24,000 nt of DNA from Actinomycetes bacterium KLBMP 9797 (GCA_037414955.1 JBBEWH010000028.1:26429-50428); one strand, 5' to 3'. Shown: positions 1 through 21,581, counted from the first letter of the stretch. Notes: a model not told the origin generated them from the sequence alone. Translations and numbers: made by a program.

Positions 1-1928
1 CCGCGTCGCGTGAGATCGACATCGGCGAGGTCCGCGCCGGTGCGGGGCGCCTCGACGACCGGGGGCTGCGGCGGTTCCTCGACGGGCTACCCACCGTGCC
101 CGGCCTGGACGGCCAGCCGACCGTTCAGGACCTCACATCGGCCCTCGGCAGTCCCGGCGCGGCGCAGCGGGCCGCGTTGCTCGCGTACGCCGTGGAGGTG
201 CTCGGGCTGTCCCCGGACGGCGTGACCATCGACCGGATCGGCGGGCCCGGCGGTGCCAAGGGCGCGTCCGGCGCGCCGGTGTTCTGGGTGCGCGATGCCG
301 CCGGCGCCCGGGTCGGCGTCATCAAGGTGTTCCCGAACGTCGACGAGTTCGCCCGCGAGCTGTCCGCCGTCATGAGACTGCACGCCGAGGAGTTCAGCCG
401 GCTCGACGTACCCCAGGTCCAAGGCGTCGGCGTCGCCCGCGCCGACGACGCGACGGCCGGCGTCGTGATCAGCTCGGTGGCCGCGGGCCGCCCCCTCGAC
501 GACCTCATGGCCGCGGTCCGGGACGCCGCGCCCGCGCAGCGGGCCGCCGCCGTCGCGGATCTCACCCAGGCCCTCCACGACACCGGCGCGGCGCTCGCCG
601 AGATGCACAACCGCCCCGCGAGCGCGGGCGGTCCGGTCGCCGACTGGTTCGCCGACCAGCACGGCACCGCGCGCACCGTCGCCTCGCTCCGGGAATGGGC
701 CGGCCACGAGGGCTTCCAGCGGCAGTACGGCTTCGACGGCGCCGCGCTCATCCGGCGCTTCGACGAGTTGGGCGCGGCGACGCGCGCGCTGCCGGGCTTC
801 GGTGCGCTCGTGCACGGCGACCCACACCCCGGAAACTTCACCCACGACCAGCACACCGGCCGGGTGACCGTCATCGACCTCGAAAGCATGCACGACTCGA
901 TGGATGCCGACGGGCGGCCCGTGGGCGCGGCCGCTCTCGACGTCGGCGTGTTCGAACGCGTCATGTCGGCGTTCGCGCACAACTTCGACGTGGCGCCGCT
1001 GCTGCCTTCCCTGCGGCGCGCCTTCCTGGACGGGTACGCCTCGTTCGGCGGTCGGGCGCTGCCGGAGGCGGCGCTCCGGTACTACCGGGCGGCTGGGCTG
1101 GCGCTGGCGCTGCACGGCACCCGGCGGATGCTGTACGGCGAAGCGCCGCGCGACCCGTCCATCACGGCCGAGAGCCTGGCGCGGCGCGCGGACGAACAAC
1201 TCGCCGAGATCCAGGACCTCCTCCGCGACCCGCCGCCAACGCCTGCGGGTCCCGTTTCCCCGGCAGGGCCGGTCGCACCCGGCTCGGGCCCGACCACTGC
1301 CGCCTCTGATTCGGCCGCTCCCGTTTCGTGGGGCGCCGACGACCGGATGGACTTCGACCCGAACGACCTCGATCCCAACCCGCGTCCCGGCGAGACGGCC
1401 GATCAGGCGGACGAGCGGGTGGAGCTCGCCCGGATCGCGAAGATCTACAACGACCTCGGGCCAGAGCCGCCACGCGTCAACCTCGCCGCCAACGACGCCG
1501 CACACGCGGGCGATGGTGCGCACACTGTCGAACGGCATGGCCCCACCGTGCCGCTGCACCGTGGCGCCCCGAACGTCCGCACCGTCGAGGGCCGCATATA
1601 CGGCGACAGCCCGTGGCAACACCCCGAGAATTACTCCTACCGGTGGTCAGACGTCTCGACGATGAACCGCGTCGTCAACGAGTACCTCCAGGAAAACTGG
1701 TCCGCCATCCGCGATGATCTTGCGTTGAAGCGCATGCACAAGCGGGTGGTTAGGCTCGACAACGCCGTCGGCGAGGGCTTCTACAACCGTGGCATGTACG
1801 GTGCTGGCCCGACAGTCGCGCAGTACCACGTCACGAGCGTCATGGAGATTAAGCTGAACCTGGTGCCTGGTAGCGATCCCGCGCGGCCGTTCGTCGTTAC
1901 CGCGTTCCCCACCGGGAGAGGATTCTAG
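1..1928 (+). CDS. Multidomain polymorphic-toxin-like protein, probably 5'-truncated by the window edge: APH/protein-kinase-fold phosphotransferase domain, Pro-rich linker, C-terminal RNase-A-like (bacterial CdiA-CT RNase A type) toxin tip
   Basis: The ORF track gives 96..1928 (GTG). The same frame is open and strongly G/C at codon position 3 back to nt 3, so the gene most likely starts upstream of the window. Kinase-fold motifs: VIKVF (beta3 Lys), VHGDPHPGNF (catalytic loop, HGDxHxxN), VIDLES (metal-binding Asp). The last ~140 aa (nt ~1500-1925) read GAHTVERHG ... WSDVSTMNRVVNEYLQENW ... VTSVMEIKLNLVPG..FVVTAFP. This matches the pattern I recall for bacterial RNase-A-like toxin tips (HTxxRH(V)G ... 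V.VVL....(I/V)(L/V)TA(Y/F)P). Confidence 0.75.
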   Translation, partial: ASREIDIGEVRAGAGRLDDRGLRRFLDGLPTVPGLDGQPTVQDLTSALGSPGAAQRAALLAYAVEVLGLSPDGVTIDRIGGPGGAKGASGAPVFWVRDAAGARVGVIKVFPNVDEFARELSAVMRLHAEEFSRLDVPQVQGVGVARADDATAGVVISSVAAGRPLDDLMAAVRDAAPAQRAAAVADLTQALHDTGAALAEMHNRPASAGGPVADWFADQHGTARTVASLREWAGHEGFQRQYGFDGAALIRRFDELGAATRALPGFGALVHGDPHPGNFTHDQHTGRVTVIDLESMHDSMDADGRPVGAAALDVGVFERVMSAFAHNFDVAPLLPSLRRAFLDGYASFGGRALPEAALRYYRAAGLALALHGTRRMLYGEAPRDPSITAESLARRADEQLAEIQDLLRDPPPTPAGPVSPAGPVAPGSGPTTAASDSAAPVSWGADDRMDFDPNDLDPNPRPGETADQADERVELARIAKIYNDLGPEPPRVNLAANDAAHAGDGAHTVERHGPTVPLHRGAPNVRTVEGRIYGDSPWQHPENYSYRWSDVSTMNRVVNEYLQENWSAIRDDLALKRMHKRVVRLDNAVGEGFYNRGMYGAGPTVAQYHVTSVMEIKLNLVPGSDPARPFVVTAFPTGRGF

Positions 1929-1930
1929 GC

Positions 1931-2293
1931 ATGGACAGTTCGAAGCTTCCTGAGCGGTTGCGTCGGCGGGCCGAGGAAATTGAAAAGCAACCGTCGCTCG
2001 ATAAGGTGCGGGAGTTTCTCGGCGCCTACCTGTTCGACGCCGTGAGTCTCGAAGAGGCACGCGAGGATCTTCAGCGAACGGCGGCCTGGGGTACGTGGAA
2101 CCTGAAGCTTGAGTTGCGCGCCTTTGACGCGGTCCTGGACGAGCCGCAGGCGCCGGGCGTGTTGATGCGGATGGTCGCGTCGGATGCCAACTGGGTTCTT
2201 GACGACCTGTCAGATGGGGCGGCGGCGGCGTTCCTGCGGCAGGTTGCGAACATATTGCGTGAGGTGATCGCGGAGGCGGACCGATCTCGTTGA
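1931..2293 (+). CDS. Putative cognate immunity protein for the upstream RNase-like tip
   Basis: 120-aa ORF whose ATG (1931) lies 2 nt after the toxin stop (TAG 1926-1928). It is acidic, with no signal peptide or TM segment. The segment FLGAYLFD resembles the conserved aromatic/acidic segment I associate with CDI-type immunity families. It shares the reduced G+C of the toxin tip. Confidence 0.6.
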   Translation: MDSSKLPERLRRRAEEIEKQPSLDKVREFLGAYLFDAVSLEEAREDLQRTAAWGTWNLKLELRAFDAVLDEPQAPGVLMRMVASDANWVLDDLSDGAAAAFLRQVANILREVIAEADRSR

Positions 2294-2303
2294 GTGATCG
2301 TGC

Positions 2304-2340
2304 GAAGATCCAGACAACAGTCCGAGAGTTGCCATGTTCC
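2304..2340 (+). repeat. Post-stop intergenic motif, copy 1
   Basis: GAAGATCCAGACAACAGTCCGAGAGTTGCCATGTTCC begins 11 nt after stop 2291-2293. About 27 of 34 aligned positions are identical to the copy at 2936-2971. Confidence 0.7.
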
Positions 2341-2409
2341 CGGCAGTCGGACAGGGCAACTGTCGCACAGTTGCGCGGATCCGCTTCAAGTGCTGAGGAG
2401 ATCCGGGTG

Positions 2410-2937
2410 ATGACGCAGCGCGACCAAGCGCTGGCGATGGCCGCGCGGCTGATGGCCATCGACTGGCGGGGAAGCGACGAGCGCACCCGCTCTCGCGTTG
2501 TCTTGATGCGAGAGTATCTTCGGCGAGCGGCATGGTGGGCACAGCGGGTCGGTCATCCAGAGCTGTGGCCCTTCTTCGACATCGCCACATATGTCGATGC
2601 CGGCGTACGGGCTGACCCAGCGCTTGTCAAGAAGGTCGAAGACGCGCTGAACGAAGTAGGCTCGTGGTCGGACGTGAGGCTGACCTGTCTGTGGGCGCTG
2701 CACTGGGCGGCTTTGCGAGATGCGTCGGGTGTCGTCCTACCCGAGCTCGATGATCCGTTTGAGCCGCTGATTCGCATGTATGAGCGCGGTGGCGGCTTCT
2801 GTGAAGAGCACGTATTCATAGATGTCGATCGAGCTGGCATTCCGCGCAGGACGTTGCTCGACCATCGCTCCGCCAAGCCGGTGGCGCAGCTTGACGACGC
2901 GTGGCTGGATGGGCTCGACAGTGGAATGTCGTCGTGA
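2410..2937 (+). CDS. Hypothetical protein in the low-G+C cassette (possible orphan immunity/accessory gene)
   Basis: ORF track 2290..2937 (TTG). I prefer ATG 2410 (or GTG 2407), preceded by GGAG at 2397-2400, because the upstream 40 codons run through an intergenic repeat motif. I recognise no family motif. Confidence 0.5.
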   Translation: MTQRDQALAMAARLMAIDWRGSDERTRSRVVLMREYLRRAAWWAQRVGHPELWPFFDIATYVDAGVRADPALVKKVEDALNEVGSWSDVRLTCLWALHWAALRDASGVVLPELDDPFEPLIRMYERGGGFCEEHVFIDVDRAGIPRRTLLDHRSAKPVAQLDDAWLDGLDSGMSS

Positions 2938-3003
2938 AGACCCAGGCAACTGCGCGAGAATTGCCATATCCGGTGGGGCTGGCGCGCGGAAGATCCACAC
3001 AAC
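2936..3003 (+). repeat. Post-stop intergenic motif, copy 2, plus a third partial copy
   Basis: GAAGACCCAGGCAACTGCGCGAGAATTGCCATATCC (2936-2971) overlaps stop 2935-2937. GAAGATCCACACAAC (2989-2003 region, exactly 2989-3003) matches the first 15 nt of copy 1 with one mismatch. Confidence 0.7.
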
Positions 3004-3108
3004 TTGTTAAAAGTTGGGGTGTCCCTGGGCTGTGTACACCCCAAGTTCCTAAAAGTTGTACTGATCTTGGTGGACCTGGTCAGCAGGACGGCGTGGATCC
3101 GGGAGGAG

Positions 3109-3168
3109 CCCATGATCAGGGCGTCCCTCAAGTTGTTCTAACGACTTGAGGGACGCCCTGATCATGGG
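3109..3168. repeat. Palindromic element A1: perfect 25-bp inverted repeat with a 10-nt loop
   Basis: CCCATGATCAGGGCGTCCCTCAAGT (3109-3133) / TGTTCTAACG / ACTTGAGGGACGCCCTGATCATGGG (3144-3168). The 3' arm contains GAGGGA, then 10 nt, then ATG 3164. Confidence 0.95.
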
Positions 3169-4288
3169 GTGGTTACTGGAGGGGGTGAGTGGGGGCGTGG
3201 GGGAGCGGGTGGCTTGGGCCGTTGATCTGCCGGAGGCGGATGACGGGGAGTTGGTCGCCACCGCGGACGGTGGTGTGGTGGTGTCCACGCGGCGGTTTCT
3301 CGCCGCGGTGACCCCGGCTGGACAAGTCGCCTGGCTGGTTGACGCTGGTGTGGGGCTGTTGGGCTCGCCGGTGTTGCTGCCCAGCGGTCGGGTGGTGCGC
3401 GCCGAAGACGGGCTTCTCGTGACCCGGGACCTGGCGACCGGTGCCTCGGTGGGCAGCGTGACGGCGACCGGGCTGTCGGCGGTGGCGGCGACGCCCGACG
3501 GTGACCTGCTGATCGTGGCGCGGACGCCCGAGCGCGAGCCGGTGCTGCGCCGGCTGTCGCCGGGTGGCGCGGTGCAGTGGACGCGGCGGTTGGACGATGC
3601 TTTCGCGTCGTTGGTGGTCGCGGGGGACGCGGTGGTGGTCGCGGATCGCGGGGCGCTGCGCGGGTACGACCTGTCGGGCGCGCCGCGGTGGTTTGCGGGC
3701 GGGCACGGGTTCGGGTTGCCGCCCGCGCCGAGGCGGAGCGCCGCGCCGGTGGCGCGCGGTCCGCTGGTCGCGCTGCCGGGCGGGCGGGTGCTGGCTGAGC
3801 TGGCGGAGCCCGACGGGTACGGCTGGCACGTGTTCGATCCGGGCGCCGACACGGTGACGCGGGTGGACTCGCCGGTCGGCATGCACCATCCGGTAACCGC
3901 CGTGCCAGGGGGCGCCGAGGACGGCGGGGTGCTGTTGGCCGCTGTGGGGCCGGCCGAGGAGGTCGAGGAGGGGCGGCAGCGGTCGAGCGTGGTGTTGGCC
4001 GAGTTGTCCGGCGCCGTGCGGTGGTCGCATCCCGTGTCCGCGGAGCCGCGGGCGTTGCTCCCGGGCGGCGCCGGCACGGTGGTCGTGGTGTGCAGTCCGG
4101 GGCTCGACCGGTGGCAGAAGTACCACCACTGGTACGACCTTTCGGGCGAGTGCTTCGTCCGGTGCGTCGGCGCGGCTGGCGAGCAGCGGTGGACCTGGCC
4201 GGCGCCGGTGCCGCTCACGTATCGGGCGGCGGCGAGCGGGGATACGACGTATGTGGCGGCGCCCGGCCGGCTGTGGGCCCTGCGGTGA
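3164..4288 (+). CDS. Hypothetical protein with PQQ/BamB-like beta-propeller-type repeats (tentative)
   Basis: ORF track 3146..4288 (TTG). In-frame ATG 3164 sits inside the 3' arm of palindromic element A1, with GAGGGA 10 nt upstream. A G-x-x-x-W blade-like motif recurs every ~60-70 aa: AGQVAWLVDAG, GGAVQWTRRLDD, SGAPRWFAGG, SGAVRWSHPV, GEQRWTWPAP. The start is uncertain because GTG alternatives exist downstream. Codon 4 is a rare TTA (3173-3175). Confidence 0.55.
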   Translation: MGWLLEGVSGGVGERVAWAVDLPEADDGELVATADGGVVVSTRRFLAAVTPAGQVAWLVDAGVGLLGSPVLLPSGRVVRAEDGLLVTRDLATGASVGSVTATGLSAVAATPDGDLLIVARTPEREPVLRRLSPGGAVQWTRRLDDAFASLVVAGDAVVVADRGALRGYDLSGAPRWFAGGHGFGLPPAPRRSAAPVARGPLVALPGGRVLAELAEPDGYGWHVFDPGADTVTRVDSPVGMHHPVTAVPGGAEDGGVLLAAVGPAEEVEEGRQRSSVVLAELSGAVRWSHPVSAEPRALLPGGAGTVVVVCSPGLDRWQKYHHWYDLSGECFVRCVGAAGEQRWTWPAPVPLTYRAAASGDTTYVAAPGRLWALR

Positions 4289-4291
4289 CGG

Positions 4292-4353
4292 CCCATGATC
4301 GAGGCGTCCCTCAAGTAGCTATAACGACTACAAGGACGCCTTGATCATGAGGG
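4292..4353. repeat. Palindromic element A2 (imperfect copy)
   Basis: CATGATCGAGGCGTCC (4294-4309) pairs with GGACGCCTTGATCATG (4334-4349), with one G-T (G-U) position. The inner CTCAAGTAG..CTACAAG part pairs only partially. It starts 4 nt after the stop at 4286-4288. Confidence 0.9.
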
Positions 4354-4364
4354 GAGGTGGATTG

Positions 4365-5510
4365 ATGGCTGAGGCTCGCACGGTCGCTGAGGCGTACGCG
4401 TACCTGGAGTTGACCTTGCCACCCGGGGAGTCCTGGGTGGACTACGAGAAGTACACCACCCTGGACGCGGGACCGGACGGCGGCTATGTGCTGCGGTTCG
4501 ACGGGTGGTACGAGGGCGAGCGGCACCGGCTCGACGTGCCGGTCGTGGCGCGGGAGGGCCGGTCGACGCTGATCGACGCGGGGCAGTGGCACCTGCTGGA
4601 GGACGCGTACGCCGGGATGGCCGCCACCGGCGAGGAGCAGCTGGCGGGTGCCGCGCCGGACGACGAGACGTACCGGGCGATCGTGGGCGCGTGGGACGGC
4701 GCCGCGACGGCGGCGGCGGAGATCGAGTTGTTCCTGCCCGAGGGGGCGGACGAGCCCGCCGGCGAGGCGTTCTGGACCGCCGCGGGTCGCGGGGTGCGGG
4801 AGCACCGGCCGGAGGCGTTCGGGCGGGCGCGGCTCGCGGCGGCCCGCGCCGAGTACACGCGCCGCCGGGACGAGTTCGTCGCCCGGTACGGGATGGCCGC
4901 CGAGGAGACGGCGGGGGAGACCACCGCGGCTGAGCCGGTGCGGGCGGCGCGCACCTACGGCGAGGCGCACACCTTCATGGATCTACACCCGTGCGAGTGC
5001 GGTTCGGCCGCGTTCCCGCGCGGGCAGCTGGCGGTGCTCGGCAGCGACGACCACGGGGTCACGGTGCGGTTCGCCGGCCGGTGCGACGACTGCGACCGGT
5101 CGCGCGCGTTCGTGTTCCGGCTGCCGCCGCGTCCGGGTGTGCCGGCGGAGTCGCCGTATCTGTTCGGGTATCCGGAGGACGGGCCGTCGGAGCTGCTCGA
5201 CGCCGGCGAGTGGTTCGGTGTCGCCGAAGGCTACGCGGCGGTCGCCGACCTGGCCGTGGCGGAGGTGGACAGCGGCGACCAGGAGGACGTGGTCAAGCTG
5301 CTCACCTGCGCCGCGAGCGCCGTCGACGAGGTGCTGCGGTTCCTTCCGGCGGGCGCGGACGTGCTGCCGGCGGGCGCGCTGTGGACCGCGGCGAGTCGCG
5401 AGGGGTACGCGCGCGACCCGGCGCGGTTCCGGCGGGCGTCGCTGGAGCAGTGGCGGGCCGAGCGGTGGCGCCGGCTCGCCGAGTACGCGGGGCGTGGGGA
5501 ATCACCGTGA
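4365..5510 (+). CDS. Two-domain protein: a Cys-less degenerate copy followed by an intact copy of an uncharacterised CxxC...CxxC domain
   Basis: ORF track 4341..5510. ATG 4365 follows GGAGG (4353-4357) at good spacing. The C-terminal half reads RTYGEAHTFMDLHPCECG...GRCDDCDRSRAFVFRLP...PSELLDAGEW...VLRFLPAGAD..P..ALWTAASR. The N-terminal half aligns to it (RTVAEAYAYLELTLPPGES...GWYEGERHRLDVPVV...STLIDAGQW...IELFLPEGAD..AGEAFWTAAGR), but all four Cys are replaced. Confidence 0.7.
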   Translation: MAEARTVAEAYAYLELTLPPGESWVDYEKYTTLDAGPDGGYVLRFDGWYEGERHRLDVPVVAREGRSTLIDAGQWHLLEDAYAGMAATGEEQLAGAAPDDETYRAIVGAWDGAATAAAEIELFLPEGADEPAGEAFWTAAGRGVREHRPEAFGRARLAAARAEYTRRRDEFVARYGMAAEETAGETTAAEPVRAARTYGEAHTFMDLHPCECGSAAFPRGQLAVLGSDDHGVTVRFAGRCDDCDRSRAFVFRLPPRPGVPAESPYLFGYPEDGPSELLDAGEWFGVAEGYAAVADLAVAEVDSGDQEDVVKLLTCAASAVDEVLRFLPAGADVLPAGALWTAASREGYARDPARFRRASLEQWRAERWRRLAEYAGRGESP

Positions 5511-5511
5511 C

Positions 5512-5530
5512 GGACGCCTTGATCATGGGG
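5512..5530. repeat. Solo 3' arm of the palindromic element (A3)
   Basis: GGACGCCTTGATCATGGGG begins 2 nt after stop 5508-5510. I see no matching 5' arm upstream. Confidence 0.8.
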
Positions 5531-6133
5531 AGGGGCGCGGTGGAAGGTGAGCTGGACGCTATGGTCGGTGGCATGGCGGCGCCGCTGGCACGTACCCATG
5601 AAGAGGCTCACCTCTACATGGAGCTGCATCCGTGTCCGGCGTGCGGCGAGCCGGAGTTCGACGCGGCGAGCGCGGTCCGCGAGACGGACGCCGGGTGGCT
5701 GGTCCGGTACGCGGGCGTGTGTGTCCAGTGTGGACGCGCGCGGGCCTTCGAGTTCCGCCAGCCCGACGAGATGCGGCCGCCGGCCGAGGGTGCGTGGGCG
5801 TCCGGTGCCGAGCCGTCCGAGTTGCTCGACGCGGGGGAGTGGCTGTTCGTGGCCGACACCTATGCCAGCGCGCCGGCCGGGGCCGATTCGGGAGCGTCCA
5901 TAGTAGACCTGCGATCGGCGGCGGCCGCGCTGGACGAGGTGCTCAAGTTCCTGCCGGACGGGGCCGCCGCGCTTCCCGACGAGGCGTTCTGGTCCGCGCG
6001 CGGCCGGGCGGTGCGCGCCGCCGAGCCGGGGCGCTTCAGTCGCGTCCGGCTGCTGGCCGCCCGCGCGACCTACGCCCGACTGCTCGCGAGCGCCCATGAT
6101 CAAGGCGTCCCGGTAGTCGCTAGAACGACATGA
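5525..6133 (+). CDS. Single-domain member of the CxxC...CxxC family
   Basis: In-frame part of ORF 4991..6133. Motifs: RTHEEAHLYMELHPCPACG...GVCVQCGRARAFEFRQP...PSELLDAGEW...VLKFLPDGAAALPDEAFWSARGR. ATG 5525 lies in a solo 3' arm of the palindromic element. ATG 5561 or 5573 are alternative starts, and 5573 best matches the N-terminus of the paralogue at 7560. The last 13 codons (SAHDQGVPVVARTT) are read from element A4. Confidence 0.65.
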   Translation: MGRGAVEGELDAMVGGMAAPLARTHEEAHLYMELHPCPACGEPEFDAASAVRETDAGWLVRYAGVCVQCGRARAFEFRQPDEMRPPAEGAWASGAEPSELLDAGEWLFVADTYASAPAGADSGASIVDLRSAAAALDEVLKFLPDGAAALPDEAFWSARGRAVRAAEPGRFSRVRLLAARATYARLLASAHDQGVPVVARTT

Positions 6134-6152
6134 AGGACGCCTTGATCATGGA
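6093..6152. repeat. Palindromic element A4 (outer arms perfect over 17 bp, core degenerate)
   Basis: CCATGATCAAGGCGTCC (6094-6110) pairs with GGACGCCTTGATCATGG (6135-6151). The core is CGGTAGTCGCTAGAACGACATGAA. Confidence 0.9.
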
Positions 6153-6636
6153 GAGACTGACAGCGGACGAGATCACCGAGGTTGCCGGCGCGCTCGCCGG
6201 GCTGTCCTGGTCGTGGACGGTCGACGACCTGGACCGGCTGGTCGACGGGTTCGGCTGGCCGATCGCGGCCGGTCCGAGCGTGGGCGGCGCCGTCCTGCAG
6301 ACCGGTCTGGCGCCGCACCACGGCTTCGCCGACGTGCGGTTCGACGGCGGGGCGGTGGGCGCCATCGTGGTACGGGTCACCGACGGCTCGCCCGAGGCGA
6401 CCGACCCGCGGCGGGACGCGTTCGCCGCGGCGGTGACGGCGGTGACCGGGGTGGCCGGCCCGCCGACCGAGCGCCGGCCCGGGCCGGCGCCCGAGGTGCG
6501 CTGGCGGGTGCCGTCCGGCGTGCTGCGGGTCACGGACGACGGCGTGTTCGTCGAGCTCGCGCTGCTCTCCGAGGCGCACGCGGCGCTGATCGACGAGGCC
6601 GACAGCGACCAGGATGATGGCGAGGACGACTGGTGA
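6148..6636 (+). CDS. Hypothetical protein with an acidic C-terminal tail
   Basis: ORF track 6130..6636. ATG 6130 overlaps the previous stop (ATGA). ATG 6148 lies inside the 3' arm of element A4, with GAAGGA 10 nt upstream, and gives MERLTADEITEV... High GC3. The tail is DEADSDQDDGEDDW. No family recognised with confidence. Confidence 0.6.
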   Translation: MERLTADEITEVAGALAGLSWSWTVDDLDRLVDGFGWPIAAGPSVGGAVLQTGLAPHHGFADVRFDGGAVGAIVVRVTDGSPEATDPRRDAFAAAVTAVTGVAGPPTERRPGPAPEVRWRVPSGVLRVTDDGVFVELALLSEAHAALIDEADSDQDDGEDDW

Positions 6637-7556
6637 CGGCTACGACCTGGGATGACTTCGCGGCGGGGCTCGGTGACATCCTGGGCCGGCTGCCCGACGA
6701 CGCCGTGGTGCAGTTCTACGCCGCCGACCGGCCGGACGAGCAGTGTGCGCAGTTCTGGCAGGACCCCGACGCGCTGCACGCCGAGATCGGCAGCGAGCGG
6801 GTCGACCTCGACTGGCCGGCGCCCGCGTCCGCCTACCGGGAGTTGGCTGGCCGGGTCGCCGAGGTGCTGCGGGAGCTGGGGTTCGCGGCGCCCGGGGACG
6901 TGACCTACCACGCCTGGCGGTCGGCCGACAGCAGCGAGCTGCCCCTGCCGGAACTGGGCATCGCCCCGGTGGAGGTGAGCTACTTCGCCCGGCTGCGGGA
7001 CGGCGACGCGCCAACCCACCCCACCGGCCTGTTACGGCGTACCCGAATAGGAAGCCGGACCACCGACGAAGCGCTCGGTCGCGACGGGCGCTGGCAGCCC
7101 ACGGACACCTTGGTCCTCGCCGAGCTGGGCGACGTGGCCGACGAGGTCCGGCCGATCACGGCCGCGGCGGCGGCCGGGGTGGTCGCCCAGTGGGATGAGG
7201 AGCCCGACGTGCGGTTCGCGGGTCCGCCGAGGGCGGACGCCCGCCCGCTCGCCGACGACGAGCGGGCACGGGTGGTCGCCTACCTGCGGGAGGCGCCGAT
7301 CGTGGTGGCCGGGTTCGGCTTCGACCCGGACCCGTACGACCCGGAGGGCGCGGAGGTCGTGCCGCTGCACCTGCACACGGACGGCGCGTGGGTGTGGTCG
7401 GCGTCGCTGGGCTACTTCGCCGAGCGGTACGGGATGCCGCCGGAGCCGGATCTGCTGGCGCACATCGTGCAGCGCGGATACCGGTGGCCGGAGCTTGATC
7501 GCGCCGCCCTGGAGCGGGTGAGTAGATTGATCACGAAGCGAGCGGGTGGAGGATAG
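6633..7556 (+). CDS. Hypothetical 307-aa protein
   Basis: GTG 6633 overlaps the upstream stop (GTGA, 6633-6636), which suggests translational coupling. High GC3. The N-terminal ~90 aa (WDDFAAGLGDILGRLPDDAVVQFYA...CAQFWQ...LHAEIGS) loosely resemble YbjN/secretion-chaperone-like sensor domains; this is tentative. The C-terminal part carries HLHTDGAWVWSASLGYFAERYGMPPEPDLLAHI. Confidence 0.6.
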   Translation: MTATTWDDFAAGLGDILGRLPDDAVVQFYAADRPDEQCAQFWQDPDALHAEIGSERVDLDWPAPASAYRELAGRVAEVLRELGFAAPGDVTYHAWRSADSSELPLPELGIAPVEVSYFARLRDGDAPTHPTGLLRRTRIGSRTTDEALGRDGRWQPTDTLVLAELGDVADEVRPITAAAAAGVVAQWDEEPDVRFAGPPRADARPLADDERARVVAYLREAPIVVAGFGFDPDPYDPEGAEVVPLHLHTDGAWVWSASLGYFAERYGMPPEPDLLAHIVQRGYRWPELDRAALERVSRLITKRAGGG

Positions 7557-7559
7557 CGC

Positions 7560-8111
7560 ATGGTGTTGCCGGTCGTCCGGACCCGGGACGAGGCTCATCT
7601 GTACATGGATTTGCGCCCGTGCGAGCGGTGCGGCAGCGCGGAGATCACCTGGCAGAGCCAGCTCACCCACGACGGCGGCGTGCCGGCGCGGCGCTACCAC
7701 GGCACGTGCGCGGGGTGCGGCGCGGCGCGCGAGTTCGTGTTCCGGCTGCCGGAGCGGCCGGCGGTGCCCGGCGACGACGGGGTGTTCTTCGGCGGCCCGG
7801 AGCCGTCGCAGCTGCTCGACGCGGGCGAGTGGCGGCTGATCGCCGACCTGGGCGTGCGGGAGGGTTCGGCGCCGCGCACCGGCGATCCGGCCGACGACGC
7901 CGAGCGCCAGCGGGCGTTCGCGCTCGCGCTGGCGGCGATGGATGAGATCATCAAGTTCATCCCGGACGGCGCGGACGGGGTGCCGGAGTCGGCGTTCTGG
8001 ACCGCGCGTGGGCGCGCCGAGTACGACCGGAACCCGGCCTCGTTCACCCGGGCGCGTCTCGAGATCTGGCGCGACACGTTCCGGGACGAGATGGAGATGC
8101 GGTTCGGATGA
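7560..8111 (+). CDS. Single-domain member of the CxxC...CxxC family
   Basis: ATG 7560 lies 3 nt after the upstream TAG and is preceded by GGTGGAGGA. Motifs: RTRDEAHLYMDLRPCERCG...GTCAGCGAAREFVFRLP...PSQLLDAGEW...IIKFIPDGADGVPESAFWTARGR. Confidence 0.75.
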   Translation: MVLPVVRTRDEAHLYMDLRPCERCGSAEITWQSQLTHDGGVPARRYHGTCAGCGAAREFVFRLPERPAVPGDDGVFFGGPEPSQLLDAGEWRLIADLGVREGSAPRTGDPADDAERQRAFALALAAMDEIIKFIPDGADGVPESAFWTARGRAEYDRNPASFTRARLEIWRDTFRDEMEMRFG

Positions 8112-8410
8112 CTCAGCCGTCGGAAATCACCGAGGAGCAGGCGCGGGAGCTGATCGCCCGCCTGCTGGGTGCGGAGGCGGAGGTCGCGCTGCACCCCTTC
8201 GACGTCGGATGGCTGGCTCAGGAGATCCTGCCGGAGCAGGACCGCGCGCGCGGCATGCACATCGGCCAGGGCAGCTACATCGTCGACCGGACCGGTGTGG
8301 TGACCGTCCACGCGAGCCTGCCGGTGCCCGTCGTGATCGAGGAGTACCGCGTGGCCCGCCGCCAGGGGCGGACGACGGGCCGGCAGGTGTGGCCGTCGGT
8401 GGAGGGTTAA
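8108..8410 (+). CDS. Small YrhB/Imm35-like putative immunity protein
   Basis: ATG 8108 overlaps the upstream stop (ATGA). The 100-aa protein reads EEQARELIARLLG...FDVGWLAQE...GQGSYIVDRTGVVTVHASLPVPVVIEEY. This fits the pattern I recall for YrhB-type immunity proteins: GW..., then G..yiVDk.tGev, then p...y. Confidence 0.6.
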   Translation: MTQPSEITEEQARELIARLLGAEAEVALHPFDVGWLAQEILPEQDRARGMHIGQGSYIVDRTGVVTVHASLPVPVVIEEYRVARRQGRTTGRQVWPSVEG

Positions 8411-8916
8411 GCGACGGCGCCGGACCGGTGCTTCGCCCCCGCGTAACCGGCGATGATCGCGGCCAGCTCCTCGCGGGTCTCCTGGATGTCGCTGAGCTCG
8501 ACCACCGCGTAGCCCTTGCGGGTGCCACCGAACGGGAACGTGGGCTGGTCCTTCATGGGCACGCTCGGGTCCAGCCACACCACGAACATGTATCGCTCCT
8601 CGTCGGTCGGCATCCGCTCGATGTTGATGGCCTCGACCTGCTCCCAGGAGACCTGGAAGCGGGTGCCCTGACAATTCACGGTGAGGCCGGTCGGGGTGAA
8701 CGAGATATGGAACGGTCGGAAGCTCAGCGCGAAGAGAATCGCGGCGACCACGCAGAGGAACACGCCGACCAGGCCGAGGAAGACGACCATGTACCCGCCG
8801 AGCGGCCCGCCGATGACGAGGCCCAGTGCGGCGAGCACGAGCGCGCCCAGGCCGACGCCGCCACCTTTCATGGCGAGTGAACGGTTGGTGCCTTCGTTGC
8901 GGTGCAACTCCGTCAT
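8407..8916 (-). CDS. Two-TM membrane protein with a C-terminal soluble (possibly PH-like) domain
   Basis: ORF track 8407..9066. I prefer ATG 8916, preceded by GAAGGAGG. Two adjacent hydrophobic helices are present (GVGLGALVLAALGLVIGGPLGG / MVVFLGLVGVFLCVVAAILFAL), followed by a ~100-aa soluble domain. Confidence 0.65.
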   Translation of the reverse strand: MTELHRNEGTNRSLAMKGGGVGLGALVLAALGLVIGGPLGGYMVVFLGLVGVFLCVVAAILFALSFRPFHISFTPTGLTVNCQGTRFQVSWEQVEAINIERMPTDEERYMFVVWLDPSVPMKDQPTFPFGGTRKGYAVVELSDIQETREELAAIIAGYAGAKHRSGAVA

Positions 8917-9007
8917 GAATGCCTCCTTCTCGTCGGGTTCCCGCGGCACCCTAGCAGCCGAAATACGCGCTCCGCGCCCCCGAAATGTGGGCGTCCCCAA
9001 CCATCGA

Positions 9008-9070
9008 CAGCAATGTCGGGGACATTGCTGCCTCCTGGGTCCGGGATGCAGCAATGTCCCCGACATTGCG
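9008..9070. repeat. Inverted pair of a self-complementary motif, GCAATGTC(GGG/CCC)GACATTGC
   Basis: CAGCAATGTCGGGGACATTGCTGC (9008-9031) and GCAGCAATGTCCCCGACATTGCG (9048-9070) are reverse complements of each other. Each is also an 8-bp stem with a 3-nt loop. The pair lies ~90-150 nt upstream of the start of the membrane-protein gene at 8916. Confidence 0.85.
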
Positions 9071-9456: not shown

Positions 9457-11160
9457 TCAGATCTGGGAGAGGGCGGCTAGTTCGGCGCGGCGGGCCGCCG
9501 GGACGACGCCGAAGAGTTCGCCCTCCACCGTGGCCCGGGCATGGGCGTTGGCGACCACGAGCGCCCAGACCGGCGCCGTCACGTCCGCGAGCCGGCTGAC
9601 CCGGCGGGCCGCACCCGGCCCGTCGGTCTCGTCCGGTGCGGGGCGCGCCAACCGGGCCCAGGCGCCGGCCGGCGTGGCCCACAGCGGGGACGCGTCGTCG
9701 ACGAGCGTGTCGGCCGGCCCGGCGCCCTGGGCGGCGAGCAGCGCCGCGCACACCGACTGCGGGTCGTCGATCCCGAGCGCTCGCACGGTCTCGATGCCCA
9801 CCCGCCAGGCGACCAGGAAGTCGGGCCAGGTCTCCGTGGACAGTCGCGCCGCGTACCGCTCGGTCGCCGCCCGCAGGATCGGCCCGGCCATCGCGCGCAC
9901 CGTGGGCGGGGCGGTGAGGGCCAGCCCGTCGGGTACCGGTGGCCGGCCCTCGGGGCACCAGCCGGGCGGCAACGGGTACGCCCGGCGGTGCGCGATGTGC
10001 GCGCTGAGCGGGAGGCCGGCGAGATCCGTGGGGTAGACGTCGCGGGTGACCCGGTCGACGATCCAGCCCGGCTCGCGGGGCGGTGGACCGGCCATCCCGC
10101 CCGGCTCCGGCACCGGCGGGCCCATCGGCGTGATCGCCTCCGGCGGCGCGTCCCAGCGGACCTGGTAGACCAGCTCGGTGCCGGTGACGACGTAGCCGGT
10201 CTCCGGGCGGCCGGCCACCCACATGGTGTAGGCCCCGAACCGCGCCGGCCGGGCCCGCACCAGCGCGATCGCCTCCGCCGGGCTACCGACCGGCGCGACC
10301 GCGGCGTCCCACGACGGCGCGGCGTCCCACGACGGCGCGGCGCCCCGCGACGGCGCGGCGCCCTGCGACGGCGCGGCGTCCCACGACGGGGCGGCGCCCC
10401 ATGACGGCGCGGCGCCCGCGTCCCACGACCGGGCGCCCTCCGACGACGGGGCGGCCGCGTCCCACGACGGGGCGGGTTGCGACGACGGCGCGGCCTCCCG
10501 CGACGGCGCGGGCGCTGGCTCCGGTCGTGGTGGGGGCAGCAGACCATCGGGTACGCCGGGCGCCAGCAGGGCGATCTCGGCGCCGTCCAGGGGGCGGGGG
10601 AGCAGCAGTGGCAGCGGCGGCGGGAACCTCTGCCGCTCGGCGTGGATGTCGGCGCCGGCGGCCCGCGCGTGCAGCACGGCACCGCGCAGCAACGGCGGGA
10701 GCGCGGCGAGCTGCCGCAGATGAGGCGGCATCGCCGAGGCCGGCGGCGGGTCGGCGAGCGGCGCCGGCGGCGGGTCGCCGGCGCGGCGGTGGGTGCGCGC
10801 CTCGACCGGGATCATCGCGAGCAGCATCGCCGTCGCCCAGTCCAGCGGCCGCCGTTCGGCGAGGAGCGCCGTGCGCGCGCTGGTGCCGTCGTACCAGGGC
10901 AGCGCCACCGCGGCGGCGAGCAGCTCCGGGTCGGCGCACTCCTTCGCCAGCGCGGTCGCGGTGGTCACGCCGATCCGGAGGCGGGCCCGCATCAGCTCGC
11001 CCTCCCAGGCCGGGTCGGGCGGCGGCACCGGCGGCAGCGGTGGGCGCGGCTGCGCCGGCCGGAGCAGGTCCAGCACGAGCGCGTCGAAGTCGTCCCGCGC
11101 GGCGCGGGGGAACACCTTGCGCAGCTGGCGACCGGCGTCCGCCCACGCCCTCAGGACCAC
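9457..11160 (-). CDS. Pro/Ala-rich multidomain hypothetical protein with an internal hexapeptide tandem repeat
   Basis: In-frame part of ORF 9457..11595. GTG 11160 overlaps the stop of the upstream gene (GTGGTCCTGA). Upstream of that point the long ORF overlaps the real SUKH-3 gene in another frame and is Arg-rich. High GC3. It contains (AAPSWD)-type repeats and a YrhB-like stretch (PGWIVDRVTRDVYPTD). The start is uncertain; ATG MRARLRIGV is an alternative. Confidence 0.55.
   Translation of the reverse strand: MVLRAWADAGRQLRKVFPRAARDDFDALVLDLLRPAQPRPPLPPVPPPDPAWEGELMRARLRIGVTTATALAKECADPELLAAAVALPWYDGTSARTALLAERRPLDWATAMLLAMIPVEARTHRRAGDPPPAPLADPPPASAMPPHLRQLAALPPLLRGAVLHARAAGADIHAERQRFPPPLPLLLPRPLDGAEIALLAPGVPDGLLPPPRPEPAPAPSREAAPSSQPAPSWDAAAPSSEGARSWDAGAAPSWGAAPSWDAAPSQGAAPSRGAAPSWDAAPSWDAAVAPVGSPAEAIALVRARPARFGAYTMWVAGRPETGYVVTGTELVYQVRWDAPPEAITPMGPPVPEPGGMAGPPPREPGWIVDRVTRDVYPTDLAGLPLSAHIAHRRAYPLPPGWCPEGRPPVPDGLALTAPPTVRAMAGPILRAATERYAARLSTETWPDFLVAWRVGIETVRALGIDDPQSVCAALLAAQGAGPADTLVDDASPLWATPAGAWARLARPAPDETDGPGAARRVSRLADVTAPVWALVVANAHARATVEGELFGVVPAARRAELAALSQI
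10303..10513. repeat. 18-bp tandem repeat (six in-phase units, then degenerate units) inside the CDS at 9457..11160
   Basis: Units of GGCG(T/C)CCC(A/G)(C/T)GACGG(C/G)GC lie at 10303, 10321, 10339, 10357, 10375 and 10393, then continue with 3-6-nt indels to ~10513. On the minus strand they encode AAPSWD/GAAPSR-type hexapeptides. Confidence 0.9.
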
Positions 11161-12254
11161 CGCTGCTCTCCGGTGCCGCCGAGGAGGATCCGGCCGCCGG
11201 CGATCGGCATTTCCGCACGGGGCTCGGCGGCCAGCGCCGGGTCGACGCCGTAGTCGGTTTGATCGTTGAGGTAGAGCGCGGCGAAGCCCTGGTCGAGCAG
11301 CGGCTCGCCGTCGATGGTCACGACGTGGTACTCCTGCTCGACCGCCGCCCGCACCAGGTCCGGAGCCCGGCTGATGTGCAGGAACGCGACCTCCAGATCG
11401 GGGGTGAGGCCGGTGCAGGCGGCGCGGAACGCCTGCGCCACCGGCGGGTCGCTGTCGTCGGCGCTTGCCAGCTGGTCGAGGGCGTCCGGCTGCTCGAACG
11501 CGACCAGCACGACGGTGAGGAACTCCAGGTCGAACACCTGGATTTCGCACCGCACATCGCCCCACCCGGCCTCGAAGTGACCCGGGACGCTCCACATCTC
11601 AGTGGGCACGATCCCCATCCGGGTCAGCGTGTCGGGCAGCCAGACGTCGTACAGGTTGGCGGGTGAGCGCGGCAGGTAGAACGCCGCGCCGACCGGGCGT
11701 TTCAGCGACCACCGCGGGACCAGGCCGGCCTCCGCCAGCTCCGCTGTGGACGGCGCCAGCCAGGCCGGTCGGCGGTCGCCGGCGGGCGTGGCGGGGCGCG
11801 GATGCCGGCCGGTGACGAGCGTGTCCAGCGCTTCCTCGATGGTGGCGCCGAGCGACCATTCCCCGATGGGGTCGATGGCGAGCACCTCGCCCTGGTCGGT
11901 CAGCGCGAGCACCGCCTCGTCCAGACCCTCCACACCCAGCGGGATCAGCGGCGTGCCCAGCGCGCGGCCGGCGTCGATGAGCGTGTCGACGCTGTGCGCG
12001 GCCATCGTCGGGTCGAGCGCGAACGGCCGCGGATTGAGGTCTACGCCGGCGCCGCCCTCGAGCACCAGGCCGCCGAACTCCTCGAGCACCCGATCCGGCA
12101 GGCCGATGGCGGTCCACAAGCGACCGCCCAGCAGGCCCGGCCGGGCGACCGCCCGGCGGTACTCCGCCAGACGGTCGGGGGAGAGCCGGCGGCCGGGGTG
12201 CCAGCCGGCGGCGCGCAGGGCCGCCTCGACCGCCGGGGTGAAGCGCTCACTCAT
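11151..12254 (-). CDS. SUKH-3 family immunity protein fused to an unknown C-terminal domain
   Basis: ATG 12254 overlaps the deaminase stop by 8 nt (ATGAGTGA). The N-terminal ~165 aa read FTPAVEAALRAAGWHPGRR...VLEEFGGLVL...RPFALDP...LIPLGVEGLDEAVLALTDQGEVLAID...TIEEALDTLVTG. This is the SUKH-3 pattern as I recall it. Residues ~170-367 are unassigned. Confidence 0.7.
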   Translation of the reverse strand: MSERFTPAVEAALRAAGWHPGRRLSPDRLAEYRRAVARPGLLGGRLWTAIGLPDRVLEEFGGLVLEGGAGVDLNPRPFALDPTMAAHSVDTLIDAGRALGTPLIPLGVEGLDEAVLALTDQGEVLAIDPIGEWSLGATIEEALDTLVTGRHPRPATPAGDRRPAWLAPSTAELAEAGLVPRWSLKRPVGAAFYLPRSPANLYDVWLPDTLTRMGIVPTEMWSVPGHFEAGWGDVRCEIQVFDLEFLTVVLVAFEQPDALDQLASADDSDPPVAQAFRAACTGLTPDLEVAFLHISRAPDLVRAAVEQEYHVVTIDGEPLLDQGFAALYLNDQTDYGVDPALAAEPRAEMPIAGGRILLGGTGEQRWS

Positions 12255-13011
12255 CGCCGGCCCCGGGCGGCAACAGGGCGGACTCATCGCCGGCTCCGGG
12301 CGGCAACAGGGCGAACCCGAGGTGGCGCAGGAGGGCCAGGCAGGACACGCACGGCGGCGTGGTCTCGCCGCTGGTCGGGTCGCCGGGCTCGCGGACCCGG
12401 TAGGTCACCACCTCGGCGCCGCGCAGCAGGCCGGTGCGCGCCTCGTCGAGGGAGATCGGCGGCGCGCCGGCCGCTGCCCGGCGGGCGTCTTCGGCGTGCA
12501 GGGTGTCGGAGAGCGCGGCCACCTCGGAGCAGCGGTCGTTGCCGCGCTCCCGGTAGGCGACCGGCAGCTCCGCCAGAAACGTGCCGACCAGCGGATGCAG
12601 GTGTGGCGTGCCCCGGCCCTTCATCGACCGGGCCCGGCGCAGGCGCCCATCGGCCAGCTGGAGATGGGTGACGTTCTCCGGAAACGCGGCGCGGAGCCGG
12701 TCGCGCTCGGCCTGGACCACCGGGTCCCAGGTGAGCGGCGCCACCGGCGTCTCCGCGCGGAACTGCCGGTATCGCTCGGCGACGGTCGCCGGCGGCACGG
12801 ACGGCCAGTACGTCAGCTCGCCGCTCGCCTTGTCGACCACGATCTGCCCGGCGCCGAGCGCGGCGGGGTCACCCGCGGGCAGCTCGCGCCAGAACACGAA
12901 CCCCAGGTCGAACTCGTGCATGCCGAAGGCGCGCGTGACGCCTACCGGCTTGTCCTGGTAGACCCACGGTGCCGCGATCAGCTTGGCCTCCCACTCGCCG
13001 AGCACGCCCAC
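12247..13011 (-). CDS. YwqJ-like nucleic-acid deaminase toxin domain fused to an N-terminal YrhB-like domain
   Basis: GTG 13011 (or GTG 13005) follows GGGGAG. The C-terminal half carries the deaminase-superfamily zinc/catalytic signature: RCSEVAALSD (C161-S-E163) and/or LHAE (H172-A-E174), then ...AEVVTYRVREPG....PPCVSCLALLRHLGF (PCxxC, C221/C224). The N-terminal ~85 aa read FDLGFVFW...GAGQIVVDKASGELTYWPSVPPATVAERY, which is YrhB-like. No signal peptide, LXG or WXG-type N-terminus is evident. Confidence 0.65.
   Translation of the reverse strand: MGVLGEWEAKLIAAPWVYQDKPVGVTRAFGMHEFDLGFVFWRELPAGDPAALGAGQIVVDKASGELTYWPSVPPATVAERYRQFRAETPVAPLTWDPVVQAERDRLRAAFPENVTHLQLADGRLRRARSMKGRGTPHLHPLVGTFLAELPVAYRERGNDRCSEVAALSDTLHAEDARRAAAGAPPISLDEARTGLLRGAEVVTYRVREPGDPTSGETTPPCVSCLALLRHLGFALLPPGAGDESALLPPGAGDE
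12249..12314. repeat. 2 x 33-bp tandem duplication spanning the deaminase stop / SUKH-3 start junction
   Basis: 12249-12281 and 12282-12314 differ at 2 of 33 positions. They encode (S)ALLPPGAGDE twice at the deaminase C-terminus and duplicate the immunity-gene ATG (12254 and 12287). Confidence 0.9.
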
Positions 13012-13136
13012 CTCCCCGTAGCTAGCGCCACCCTAACGTGCCGCGTCACCGGCGCGTACGCCCGCCGTATCCTGTCCGACGTGGGCCAGACCGCGTCTTG
13101 CTCATGAGACGGGGTGTGATGGGGAGGGGACGAGAG

Positions 13137-17299: not shown

Positions 17300-17439
17300 G
17301 TTGGTCACCCTCCCCGACACCATGCGATTCGCGGGCTCAACCTAGCATGCCCCTCAGCGCTCACCCGGAGCCATCGGTACTGGTGGGCGGTCTCTGTGGT
17401 GTCTATAGGATGAGGACCAACCTAGGGGAGGGTCGAGCG

Positions 17440-21407: not shown

Positions 21408-21468
21408 CCCGTGATCAGGGCGTCCTTCAAGTAGTTCTCAACTACTTGAAGGACGCCCTGATCACGGG
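21408..21468. repeat. Palindromic element A5: perfect 29-bp inverted repeat with a 3-nt loop, immediately after eccC
   Basis: CCCGTGATCAGGGCGTCCTTCAAGTAGTT (21408-21436) / CTC / AACTACTTGAAGGACGCCCTGATCACGGG (21440-21468). It starts 3 nt after the eccC TAA (21403-21405) and probably also acts as a terminator. Confidence 0.95.
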
Positions 21469-21581
21469 CTTCACCACGGCGTGACGCCGGGATGACCGCG
21501 GTCGGGAACATCTACTCCGTGACGCACAGATCTCCATTTCTGACTCGTGTTGCGACCGGCCCCGAAGGCGGGAGGACCTCC

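Follow-up and report, generated by a model that had tools for sequence, protein, structure and literature searches.

A coupled pair of predicted zinc-ribbon and cysteine-less proteins linked to giant type VII secretion substrates in actinomycetes

To our knowledge, the antibacterial type VII secretion system (T7SS) toxins and their helpers have been elucidated almost exclusively in Bacillota (T7SSb), and the giant ESX substrates of soil actinomycetes, together with what keeps them harmless or exportable, are essentially uncharted. The closest described systems are of two kinds: immunity proteins such as SUKH (SMI1/KNR4) and the EsaG (DUF600) and TsaI strings of the T7SSb, and T7SS chaperones and targeting factors such as EspG, Lap1/Lap2, EsaE and DUF4176/Ltc. 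We analyzed a 24,000-nucleotide stretch of DNA from Actinomycetes bacterium KLBMP 9797 (JBBEWH010000028.1:26429-50428; hereafter the window; G+C content ~73%) in which four copies of an unnamed domain family lie at positions 4365 to 8111. The usual form of this family's basic unit is a pair of coupled genes, one encoding a protein with four cysteines (type A) and the other a protein with none (type B). The reading that we favor, at a probability of about 0.42, is that the family is a cytoplasmic A/B accessory, chaperone/adaptor-like or acting as a pre-export neutralizer, of giant ESX toxins.

The four copies and the two genes lying among them are listed below, with bit scores from a family hidden Markov model (HMM) made from 116 homologues.

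4365-5510, + strand: two-domain family protein of 381 aa, with copy 1 as its N-terminal half and copy 2 as its C-terminal half
4365..4928, + strand: copy 1, type B, cysteine-less (BLASTP E = 6e-16 to copy 3; family HMM 52 bits, from the C-terminal half)
4929..5510, + strand: copy 2, type A2, cysteines spaced CxC...CxxC (BLASTP E = 1e-40 to copy 4; family HMM 140 bits)
5525..6133, + strand: copy 3, type A3, stand-alone protein of 202 aa with four cysteines (family HMM 186 bits)
6130..6636, + strand: DUF6301 protein (Pfam PF19818, E = 2.7e-25), co-operonic with the family genes
6633..7556, + strand: TY-Chap3 protein of predicted type III secretion chaperone/YbjN-like fold (Pfam PF22552, E = 4.6e-10), co-operonic with the family genes
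7560..8111, + strand: copy 4, type A1, stand-alone protein of 183 aa with four cysteines (family HMM 275 bits)

The first-pass annotation, made from the sequence alone, had proposed four copies of one domain, and pairwise comparison using BLASTP bore this out, with homologous domains of ~175 aa at 4365-4928, 4929-5510, 5525-6133 and 7560-8111. Copies 2 (4929-5507) and 4 (7560-8108) were 46% identical (E = 1e-40). Copies 1 (4365-4928) and 3 (5525-6130) were 34% identical over 177 aa (E = 6e-16), an alignment that spans the entire domain and agrees with the earlier statement that the N-terminal half of the gene at 4365 aligns along its whole length. The match between copies 1 and 4 (E = 3e-14) was restricted to the C-terminal half. 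A four-way alignment of the window copies contained 33 invariant columns, including the previously described shared motifs S..L.DAG.W, E...F.P.GA and W.A..R. The first cysteine knuckle reads HPCE-CG in copy 2, HPCPACG in copy 3 and RPCERCG in copy 4, and the second reads GRCDDCD, GVCVQCG and GTCAGCG, respectively. Copy 1 has LTLPPGES and GWYEGERH instead and lacks all four cysteines, just as had been described. The three genes had also been called neighboring; they are, but they are not contiguous, as the DUF6301 and TY-Chap3 genes separate the second from the third. The start codon at 4365 is backed by the N-termini of orthologues and by a 381-aa NCBI protein, and the copy 4 protein is 100% identical to a 'hypothetical protein' record of Actinomycetes bacterium KLBMP 9797. 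A separate exact-match query with the window's own protein gave no record.

When 1.84 billion cluster representatives were searched with a profile, 1,090 proteins reached E ≤ 1e-3, 741 of them E ≤ 1e-10; the family size of 1,090 is a count of clusters at 50% identity. Many of these members contain two, three or four tandem copies. A word-indexed search yielded 209 relatives; among the best 120 of these, all named entries are 'hypothetical' and all named organisms are actinomycetes, the taxa being Micromonosporaceae, Streptosporangiaceae, Cryptosporangium, Actinocatenispora and metagenome-assembled genomes of Pseudonocardiales/Mycobacteriales. Across 119 aligned members, each of C21, C24, C50 and C53 is kept in 90% of sequences or more, and S83, L85, D87, G89, W91, E129 and F133 are invariant. 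The C-terminal tail is variable, the last near-invariant column being L167 of 183.

The AlphaFold2 model of copy 4 was of high confidence (predicted local distance difference test score, pLDDT, 94.6; predicted template modelling score, pTM, 0.89). It comprises a helix at residues 9-17, a cysteine-bearing three-stranded ribbon (32-38, 41-50 and 56-62; pLDDT ~95), an ordered linker, and helices 88-102, 110-132 and 149-182, which form a helical bundle. The conserved cysteines, two CxxC-type knuckles and three-stranded sheet are those of a Cys4 zinc-ribbon motif, and on the basis of the cysteines and the model, type A proteins carry a putative zinc site.

The first-pass annotation had been unable to place the family in any named immunity family, and neither profile-HMM searches nor AlphaFold/Foldseek comparisons provided a confident assignment beyond generic zinc-ribbon similarity, with no relative found in Pfam, NCBIfam, PADLOC or the PDB. 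Specifically, Pfam, NCBIfam and PADLOC scans of family proteins returned nothing above threshold. The sub-threshold ribbon matches were Lar (E = 0.057; 14.1 bits vs a cut-off of 28.6), HVO_0649 (16.8 vs 70) and TIGR03655 (15.1 vs 39.6), scores that fall under the curated cut-offs for membership in Lar (PF14354/TIGR03655) or HVO_0649 (NF041911). Foldseek searches of the PDB with the copy 4 model gave NrdR as the best match (E = 0.0096, TM-score 0.21-0.25, root-mean-square deviation 17 Å) and none at E < 0.001, while the two-domain B-A2 model had no PDB match. A sequence-profile search of the PDB gave nothing credible, the best hit (E = 0.02) lying on unrelated helices, and Foldseek matches in BFVD were solely to ribbons of ~50 residues (root-mean-square deviation 2-4 Å). 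The family lacks a Pfam match to WXG100, and its ribbon-plus-bundle fold and non-conserved tail also set it apart from WXG100/Esx-type substrates; similarly, no Pfam match to the ATP-cone was found that would make it an NrdR-like regulator. Searches of Pfam, NCBIfam, the PDB and Foldseek likewise did not place it, by sequence or fold, in the known T7SS chaperone and targeting families (EspG, Lap/DUF3130/DUF3958, DUF4176/Ltc and EsaE). The family is undescribed in the literature sources searched, and no zinc-ribbon immunity family was found in the portions of the 2012 polymorphic-toxin survey that were searched. It is, then, a large actinobacterial family without a name or model, previously undescribed in that literature.

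The pairing of the two types is clearest in Streptosporangiaceae-type loci, where the family follows a giant toxin gene. In nearly all of these loci, the first gene after the giant encodes a type A protein (four cysteines, 250-290 bits), and in every one examined the second encodes a type B protein (zero or one cysteine, 50-80 bits, mostly via the C-terminal half). The pattern was found in 41 giant-A-B triplets, with the A and B genes overlapping by 8 nt (e.g., 10001-10525 and 10518-11063 in locus L004). Two features of B are absent from A: the motif DAGQW in place of DAGEW, and a longer second helix with D..xY..V..W.

In a neighbor-joining tree of 155 family domains, each of the four window copies fell into a clade of its own, and every one of these clades includes orthologues from other genera, among them Micromonospora and Plantactinospora. 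The clade of copy 1 contains all the cysteine-less copies, namely the N-terminal halves of the Micromonosporaceae fusions and the second genes of the pairs elsewhere. Copy 2 belongs to the A2 clade of fusion C-terminal halves, with orthologues in L002, L011, L014, L016 and L020; copy 3 to the A3 clade, with orthologues 58-64% identical in four Micromonosporaceae loci; and copy 4 to the A1 clade, comprising the mycP-adjacent genes and the A genes directly behind the giant in Streptosporangiaceae-type loci. The copies had been interpreted as a local expansion and divergence of one family. This does not hold: because the whole block and its four clades recur elsewhere, the paralogues are old and retained rather than locally expanded.

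Nor is copy 1 a decaying domain, as the earlier statement that its presumed zinc ribbon is gone might be read. In 17 orthologous two-domain proteins, the N-terminal half is cysteine-less throughout and the motif LELTLPPGExW is conserved; two distant two-domain proteins retain cysteines in both halves. In the AlphaFold2 model of the B-A2 fusion (pLDDT 86), the cysteine-less half keeps the three-stranded sheet and the helices. The cysteine-less copy is an ancient, conserved partner form.

To describe the genomic context, we compiled 80 loci, one genome per species, with 298 of 321 candidate stretches confirmed. As these loci were the best matches to copy 4, A1 orthologues are over-represented among them; genes in them were called using an ad hoc codon log-odds model trained on the same loci, and open reading frames (ORFs) of at least 1,500 aa were counted as giants. 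In 53 of the 80 loci, a family gene directly follows a giant ORF on the same strand, the general position of an immunity gene relative to its toxin, and in a further 7 it lies within a few genes downstream. It is divergent from the giant's operon in four loci and upstream in one. The remaining 15 loci, which include short contigs and fragmented calls, lack a giant ORF within 10 kb. In 28 of the 80 loci, ESX core genes are found at a distance of up to 10 kb, and 13 loci have the family gene directly adjoining mycP.

Annotated contigs show the same linkage of the family to T7SS substrates and secretion loci. In Phytohabitans and Micromonospora zhanjiangensis, a protein of 5,488 or 6,554 aa is followed by cassettes, and mycP-eccB-eccD-eccC are directly preceded by a family gene; the 6,554-aa protein of M. 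zhanjiangensis is the counterpart of the window's giant. In Actinocatenispora, four family genes and a gene for an SseB-like protein come after that of a 5,501-aa protein bearing ADP-ribosyltransferase and PI3/4-kinase-like domains. The Cryptosporangium giant is a 2,932-aa WXG100_2/YwqJ/Gln-amidase toxin. In Nonomuraea fastidiosa, a WXG100_2 protein of 3,634-3,638 aa is directly followed by family genes of 174 and 183 aa, and in Sphaerisporangium the same trio of a giant and two family genes adjoins eccC/eccD. All the giants with Pfam records, from three loci, are WXG100_2-type T7SS substrates. In Micromonosporaceae, the block behind the giants has the order PQQ - (small gene) - B-A2 - A3 - DUF6301 - TY-Chap3, with the PQQ protein at the same position in L002, L003, L017 and L092 and the DUF6301 gene order kept in L011, L014, L016, L020 and L092.

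The family is also found fused to other domains. Among 98 longer members, the partners were pentapeptide repeats (four), DUF6301 (three), TY-Chap3 (two), SseB (one), SUKH-1 with a WHH fragment (one) and a leucine-rich repeat (LRR; one). The DUF6301 and TY-Chap3 fusions mirror the gene order of the window. Of these partners, the pentapeptide-repeat, SUKH and LRR domains are characteristic of immunity proteins. For TY-Chap3 and SseB, a role as peptide-binding chaperones, of T3SS-chaperone/YbjN and Tic22-like kinds, has been predicted (PMC9503650). One 571-aa fusion to pentapeptide repeats (P0175), on a 33.7-kb contig of JGI metagenome 3300047160, is encoded between two giant genes; the product of the upstream one is 3,878 aa long, and that of the downstream one is a 3,785-aa protein rich in tetratricopeptide repeats.

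We next compared the conservation of the family with that of its neighbors. In the 41 giant-A-B triplets, median pairwise identity was 70.6% for A, 46.6% for B and 30.7% for the giant (best high-scoring segment pair). Mean column identities over the same 33 genomes were 0.74, 0.52 and 0.39, respectively. Within the ~3,200 visible residues of the giant, no 60-column stretch exceeded 0.54 except the N-terminal edge of the covered part, at 0.69; that edge hints that the unseen end of the giant, with its secretion domain, is its conserved part. A1 was present in eight of eight Micromonosporaceae/Cryptosporangium loci and was 51-72% identical to the window copy (59-72% in the seven Micromonosporaceae, 51% in Cryptosporangium). 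The corresponding values in these eight loci were 37-58% for MycP, 50-61% for EccB, 72-78% for EccD and 81-87% for EccC. A1 is thus as conserved as MycP and EccB. The PQQ, 120-aa, YwqJ/SUKH-3 and other flanking genes are present or absent by locus. The first-pass annotation had seen in the copies the diversification signature of immunity (or decoy/adaptor) genes. The comparison speaks against this: diversifying immunity genes would be expected to diverge at least as fast as the toxin, and type A copies do the opposite, being more conserved than the toxin and comparable to T7SS core genes.

The C-termini of the giants vary among loci, and the family follows all types: an HExxH module with a TGWxPPEExCxCPxxxPCxCGRR tail, a LysM-like tail, an early Gly-rich end and, in the window, a kinase-like domain with a tip. 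The family was thus not swapped with the tip, and A did not diverge as fast as the toxin. The HExxH module is ~230 aa long (e.g., LVHEISHIAQE) and occurs at L047:7800-8550 and L047:1430-2170, with similar modules in L027, L032 and others; Nonomuraea-type giants have two and the others one to three. Pfam recognizes neither this module nor the Cys-rich, LysM-like and Gly-rich tails, and a Pfam search of the C-terminal 1,500 aa of six giants produced PI3/PI4-kinase-like and ADP-ribosyltransferase matches in just one. We also considered whether the number of family copies equals the number of HExxH modules. This fits many Nonomuraea-type loci (two and two) and fails elsewhere: Actinoallomurus-type loci have one module and two genes, L033 has two modules and one gene, and Micromonosporaceae loci with four to five family domains have no visible HExxH module.

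In the accessory reading introduced above, A and B would assemble into a hetero-oligomer, bind the giant substrate (3,600-6,500 aa) in the cytoplasm of the producer and keep it stable, inactive and competent for export. The partner contacted by the conserved A would itself be conserved, being either the ESX machinery or the N-terminal secretion region of the substrate, and the fast-evolving B would provide substrate specificity. The unit in the window would be the B-A2 fusion (4365-5510) with A3 and A1, in one same-strand run with DUF6301 and TY-Chap3. We favor the accessory reading because the A/B pairing is ancient, A is conserved above the toxin, and the family is independent of the tip. 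The core-like A1 beside mycP, the ties to chaperone domains, and the divergent or upstream placement in some loci, which is unusual for immunity genes, argue in the same direction. A narrower version, which we regard as rather unlikely, is that the A/B pair is a new class of ESX (T7SSa) substrate-specific chaperone or targeting adaptor for giant WXG100-type toxins of non-mycobacterial actinomycetes. Such a class would correspond in function to EspG or Lap/Ltc and would combine a zinc-ribbon subunit with a zinc-less pseudo-subunit; A would dock on conserved machinery or the secretion domain, B would read the cargo, and DUF6301 and TY-Chap3 would be further parts of the same cytosolic export platform.

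Several points weigh against the accessory reading. The position right after the toxin stop codon is the textbook position of an immunity gene, and the genes for the known T7SSb chaperones and targeting factors (Lap, DUF4176/Ltc, EsaE) lie upstream of the toxin genes. No conserved immunity candidates other than A and B adjoin the giant in Nonomuraea-type loci, and some family members are fused to the immunity-type domains listed above. No sequence or fold likeness to known chaperones was found in Pfam, the PDB or Foldseek, and the B-A2 model has a pTM of only 0.59, so that no defined interface between B and A is predicted. The bias of the 80 loci toward A1 and the ad hoc gene calls that underlie the position counts should also be borne in mind.

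Much of this would be expected of classical polymorphic-toxin immunity, a close rival of the accessory reading and a serious, if tentative, possibility. The family protein would then block a toxic domain of the giant, such as the repeated HExxH metallopeptidase-like module, and the extra copies in the window would be a retained poly-immunity island matching a multi-domain toxin. Besides the 53 of 80 loci in which the family gene comes directly after that of the toxin, and the fusions to pentapeptide repeats, LRR and SUKH-1 with its WHH nuclease fragment, this view draws on the window being a true toxin/immunity locus (YwqJ/SUKH-3, RHS) and on the many Nonomuraea-type giants with two HExxH modules and two family genes. 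The tandem, non-identical paralogues resemble the firmicute esaG/tsaI immunity strings, as far as these are described in the part of PMC9484751 consulted. Orthologous immunity genes can also be similarly conserved, SUKH-3 being 58% identical between the window and L002. What tells against immunity is that A reaches a column identity of 0.74, compared with at most 0.54 for the visible toxin body, that the family is kept whatever the C-terminal tip of the giant, and that module number does not track copy number outside Nonomuraea. The core-like A1, found in eight of eight loci, the divergent or upstream placement in five loci, and an obligate pair of Cys4 and cysteine-less paralogues, which is unusual among immunity proteins, point the same way.

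Two further roles are far less probable. We consider it quite improbable that the family is a regulator, its ribbon and helical domain binding nucleic acid, a sigma factor or another regulator to control toxin or ESX expression. Zinc ribbons are common in regulators, the best, insignificant fold matches are to NrdR, TFIIS-type and MqsA ribbons, the family is highly conserved, and it is transcribed divergently from the giant's operon in four loci. However, no DNA-binding domain was found using Pfam and NCBIfam, the NrdR match has a TM-score of 0.21 (E = 0.01), and translational coupling behind a gene of ~11 kb is atypical of transcription factors, as are tandem or fused architectures of up to four copies and the pentapeptide, DUF6301 and TY-Chap3 fusions. 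Moreover, the ribbon is not the conserved functional core, because the cysteine-less B keeps every other motif. Equally, there is little chance that the family is a co-secreted helical partner, which would combine with the WXG100_2 domain of the giant into a composite T7SS export signal and be exported along with the giant, as modelled on EsxB for EsxA or Lap1/Lap2 for LXG toxins. The linkage to WXG100_2 giants and ESX genes is conserved, the C-terminal half is a predicted helical bundle, and T7SS substrates typically leave as pairs according to the parts of PMC10801868 and PMC9600955 consulted. Against this, Pfam and NCBIfam gave no match to WXG100 or any other T7SS-substrate family, and no conserved export motif is evident in the non-conserved tail, near-invariant columns ending at L167 of 183. 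A folded zinc ribbon would be odd for a helical-hairpin substrate, and several loci contain separate genes of 96-143 aa that are possible Esx-like partners.

The remaining features of the window are as follows.

3..1928, + strand: giant toxin gene, C-terminal 641 aa, running off the left end of the window; Pfam APH-like kinase domain (E = 8.6e-09) and a terminal tip domain
1931-2293 (120 aa) and 2290-2937 (215 aa), + strand: two small ORFs within a stretch of lower G+C content
3146..4288, + strand: PQQ_2-type beta-propeller protein (Pfam PF13360, E = 8.8e-07), heading the conserved block
8108-8410, + strand: 100-aa ORF with a 4-nt overlap with the copy 4 stop codon
8407-9066, - strand: small membrane protein with two predicted transmembrane helices near the N-terminus
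9457-11595, - strand: large Pro/Ala-rich ORF of 567-712 aa, depending on the choice of start, with short AAPSW(D/G)-type repeats
11154-12254, - strand: SUKH-3 immunity protein (Pfam E = 1.7e-26)
12250-13011, - strand: YwqJ-like deaminase (Pfam E = 2.7e-24), forming a toxin/immunity cassette with SUKH-3
13038-14384, + strand: mycosin, MycP (Pfam Peptidase_S8, E = 3.5e-35)
14488-15882, - strand: EccB (Pfam EccB, E = 6.5e-85)
15890-17323, - strand: EccD (Pfam EccD, E = 4e-89, and YukD, E = 8.5e-24)
17347-21405, + strand: EccC (Pfam FtsK_SpoIIIE, E = 4.7e-87)
21492-22334, + strand: SARP-type regulator directly after eccC (BTAD, E = 1.1e-42, and Trans_reg_C)
22446-23999, - strand: RHS-repeat protein (E = 3.4e-17), running off the right end of the window

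The toxin/immunity neighborhood that had been proposed is present, with the C-terminus of a giant toxin, the YwqJ-deaminase/SUKH-3 pair, the RHS protein and the MycP-EccB-EccD-EccC core. Because it contains the YwqJ/SUKH-3 pair, the ESX/T7SSa core and the RHS gene, the window is a real toxin/immunity locus beside a secretion system. At ~1400-3000, which covers the tip of the giant and the two small ORFs, the G+C content falls to 0.63-0.69 from ~0.74 in the surroundings. No Pfam, NCBIfam or PDB relative was found for the tip or for the ORFs at 1931-2293 and 2290-2937, and this region looks like a recently acquired tip-plus-immunity cassette.

Homologues of the 100-aa ORF at 8108-8410 occur in loci of Phytohabitans and Cryptosporangium (L001/L010, L013, L015, L022 and L023). 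In Phytohabitans kaempferiae (L001/L010), the homologous stretch sits within the annotated 5,488-aa giant gene, for which reason the ORF may be a detached domain of the giant proteins. In six related loci (L001, L009, L010, L013, L015 and L018), a homologue of the membrane protein at 8407-9066 is encoded on the other strand, directly upstream of the family gene that adjoins mycP. The Pro/Ala-rich ORF at 9457-11595 lies downstream of the YwqJ/SUKH-3 pair and has no Pfam match; M. zhanjiangensis encodes a partial homologue, 52% identical over half its length.

A near-perfect palindrome of ~62 nt, with arms CCCATGATCAGGGCGTCC...GGACGCCCTGATCATGGG, recurs at gene junctions in the window, at 3108-3169, 4291-4352, 6092-6153 and 21410-21466, the last between eccC and the gene for the SARP-type regulator; the right arm alone occurs at 5508-5533. 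A 16-mer of the palindrome occurs nine times in the window, compared with 0.05 expected. The predicted RNA hairpins have energies of -61, -35 and -39 kcal/mol (z = -10.4, -4.0 and -6.5). The right arm contains AAGGA or AGGGA followed, after 9 nt, by ATG (at 3164, 4347, 5525 and 6148), and the hairpin would consequently sequester the downstream gene's ribosome-binding site together with a candidate start codon. The palindrome was absent from all 91 related loci and had no Rfam match, and no analogous junction hairpins were found in four syntenic loci.

Whichever of its two leading functions applies, the family would be a new component of actinobacterial type VII secretion and interbacterial antagonism, and it is a dependable genomic marker of giant toxin genes. 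A pair of paralogues predicted to be zinc-binding and zinc-less offers a concrete handle on how giant toxins may be bound, neutralized, stabilized or delivered to EccC.

Comparison with known systems defines what is distinctive about the family. It shares with small zinc-ribbon proteins (Lar PF14354/TIGR03655, HVO_0649 NF041911, and the TFIIS-type and NrdR ribbons) the CxxC...CxxC pattern and a three-stranded ribbon of ~45-60 residues. It differs from them in that HMM matches reach 13-17 bits vs cut-offs of 28.6-70, in having the signature PSxLLDAGEW, KF(I/L)PxGA and FW(T/S)xxGR and a bundle outside the ribbon, and in having a B form without cysteines. The TY-chaperone/SseB conflict systems of the Aravind group (PMC9503650) are linked to the family through TY-Chap3 and SseB, which neighbor it and fuse with it. 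Those systems, in whose description the family itself does not appear, are centered on an ADP-ribosylglycohydrolase with Nudix or WYL regulators, none of which is present here. With the immunity proteins (SUKH/SMI1-KNR4, and the EsaG/DUF600 and TsaI strings of the T7SSb), the family has in common small cytoplasmic proteins encoded directly behind a secreted toxin gene, tandem non-identical paralogues, and its SUKH-1, pentapeptide-repeat and LRR fusions. It is unrelated to them in sequence and fold, and is distinguished by a tip-independent A that is more conserved than the toxin, an ancient Cys4/cysteine-less pair, and an A1 conserved like ESX core genes. From the T7SS chaperones EspG (of PE/PPE proteins), Lap1/Lap2, EsaE and DUF4176/Ltc (of LXG proteins; PMC12478183), the family differs in lacking a homology or fold match, in lying downstream of the substrate gene and in its predicted zinc ribbon. 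The likeness to these chaperones would be an analogy of role: like them, the family is predicted to be cytosolic, is tied to T7SS substrates or the T7SS locus, and is often paired, and its A proteins are, as expected of such chaperones, more conserved than the variable parts of the toxin.

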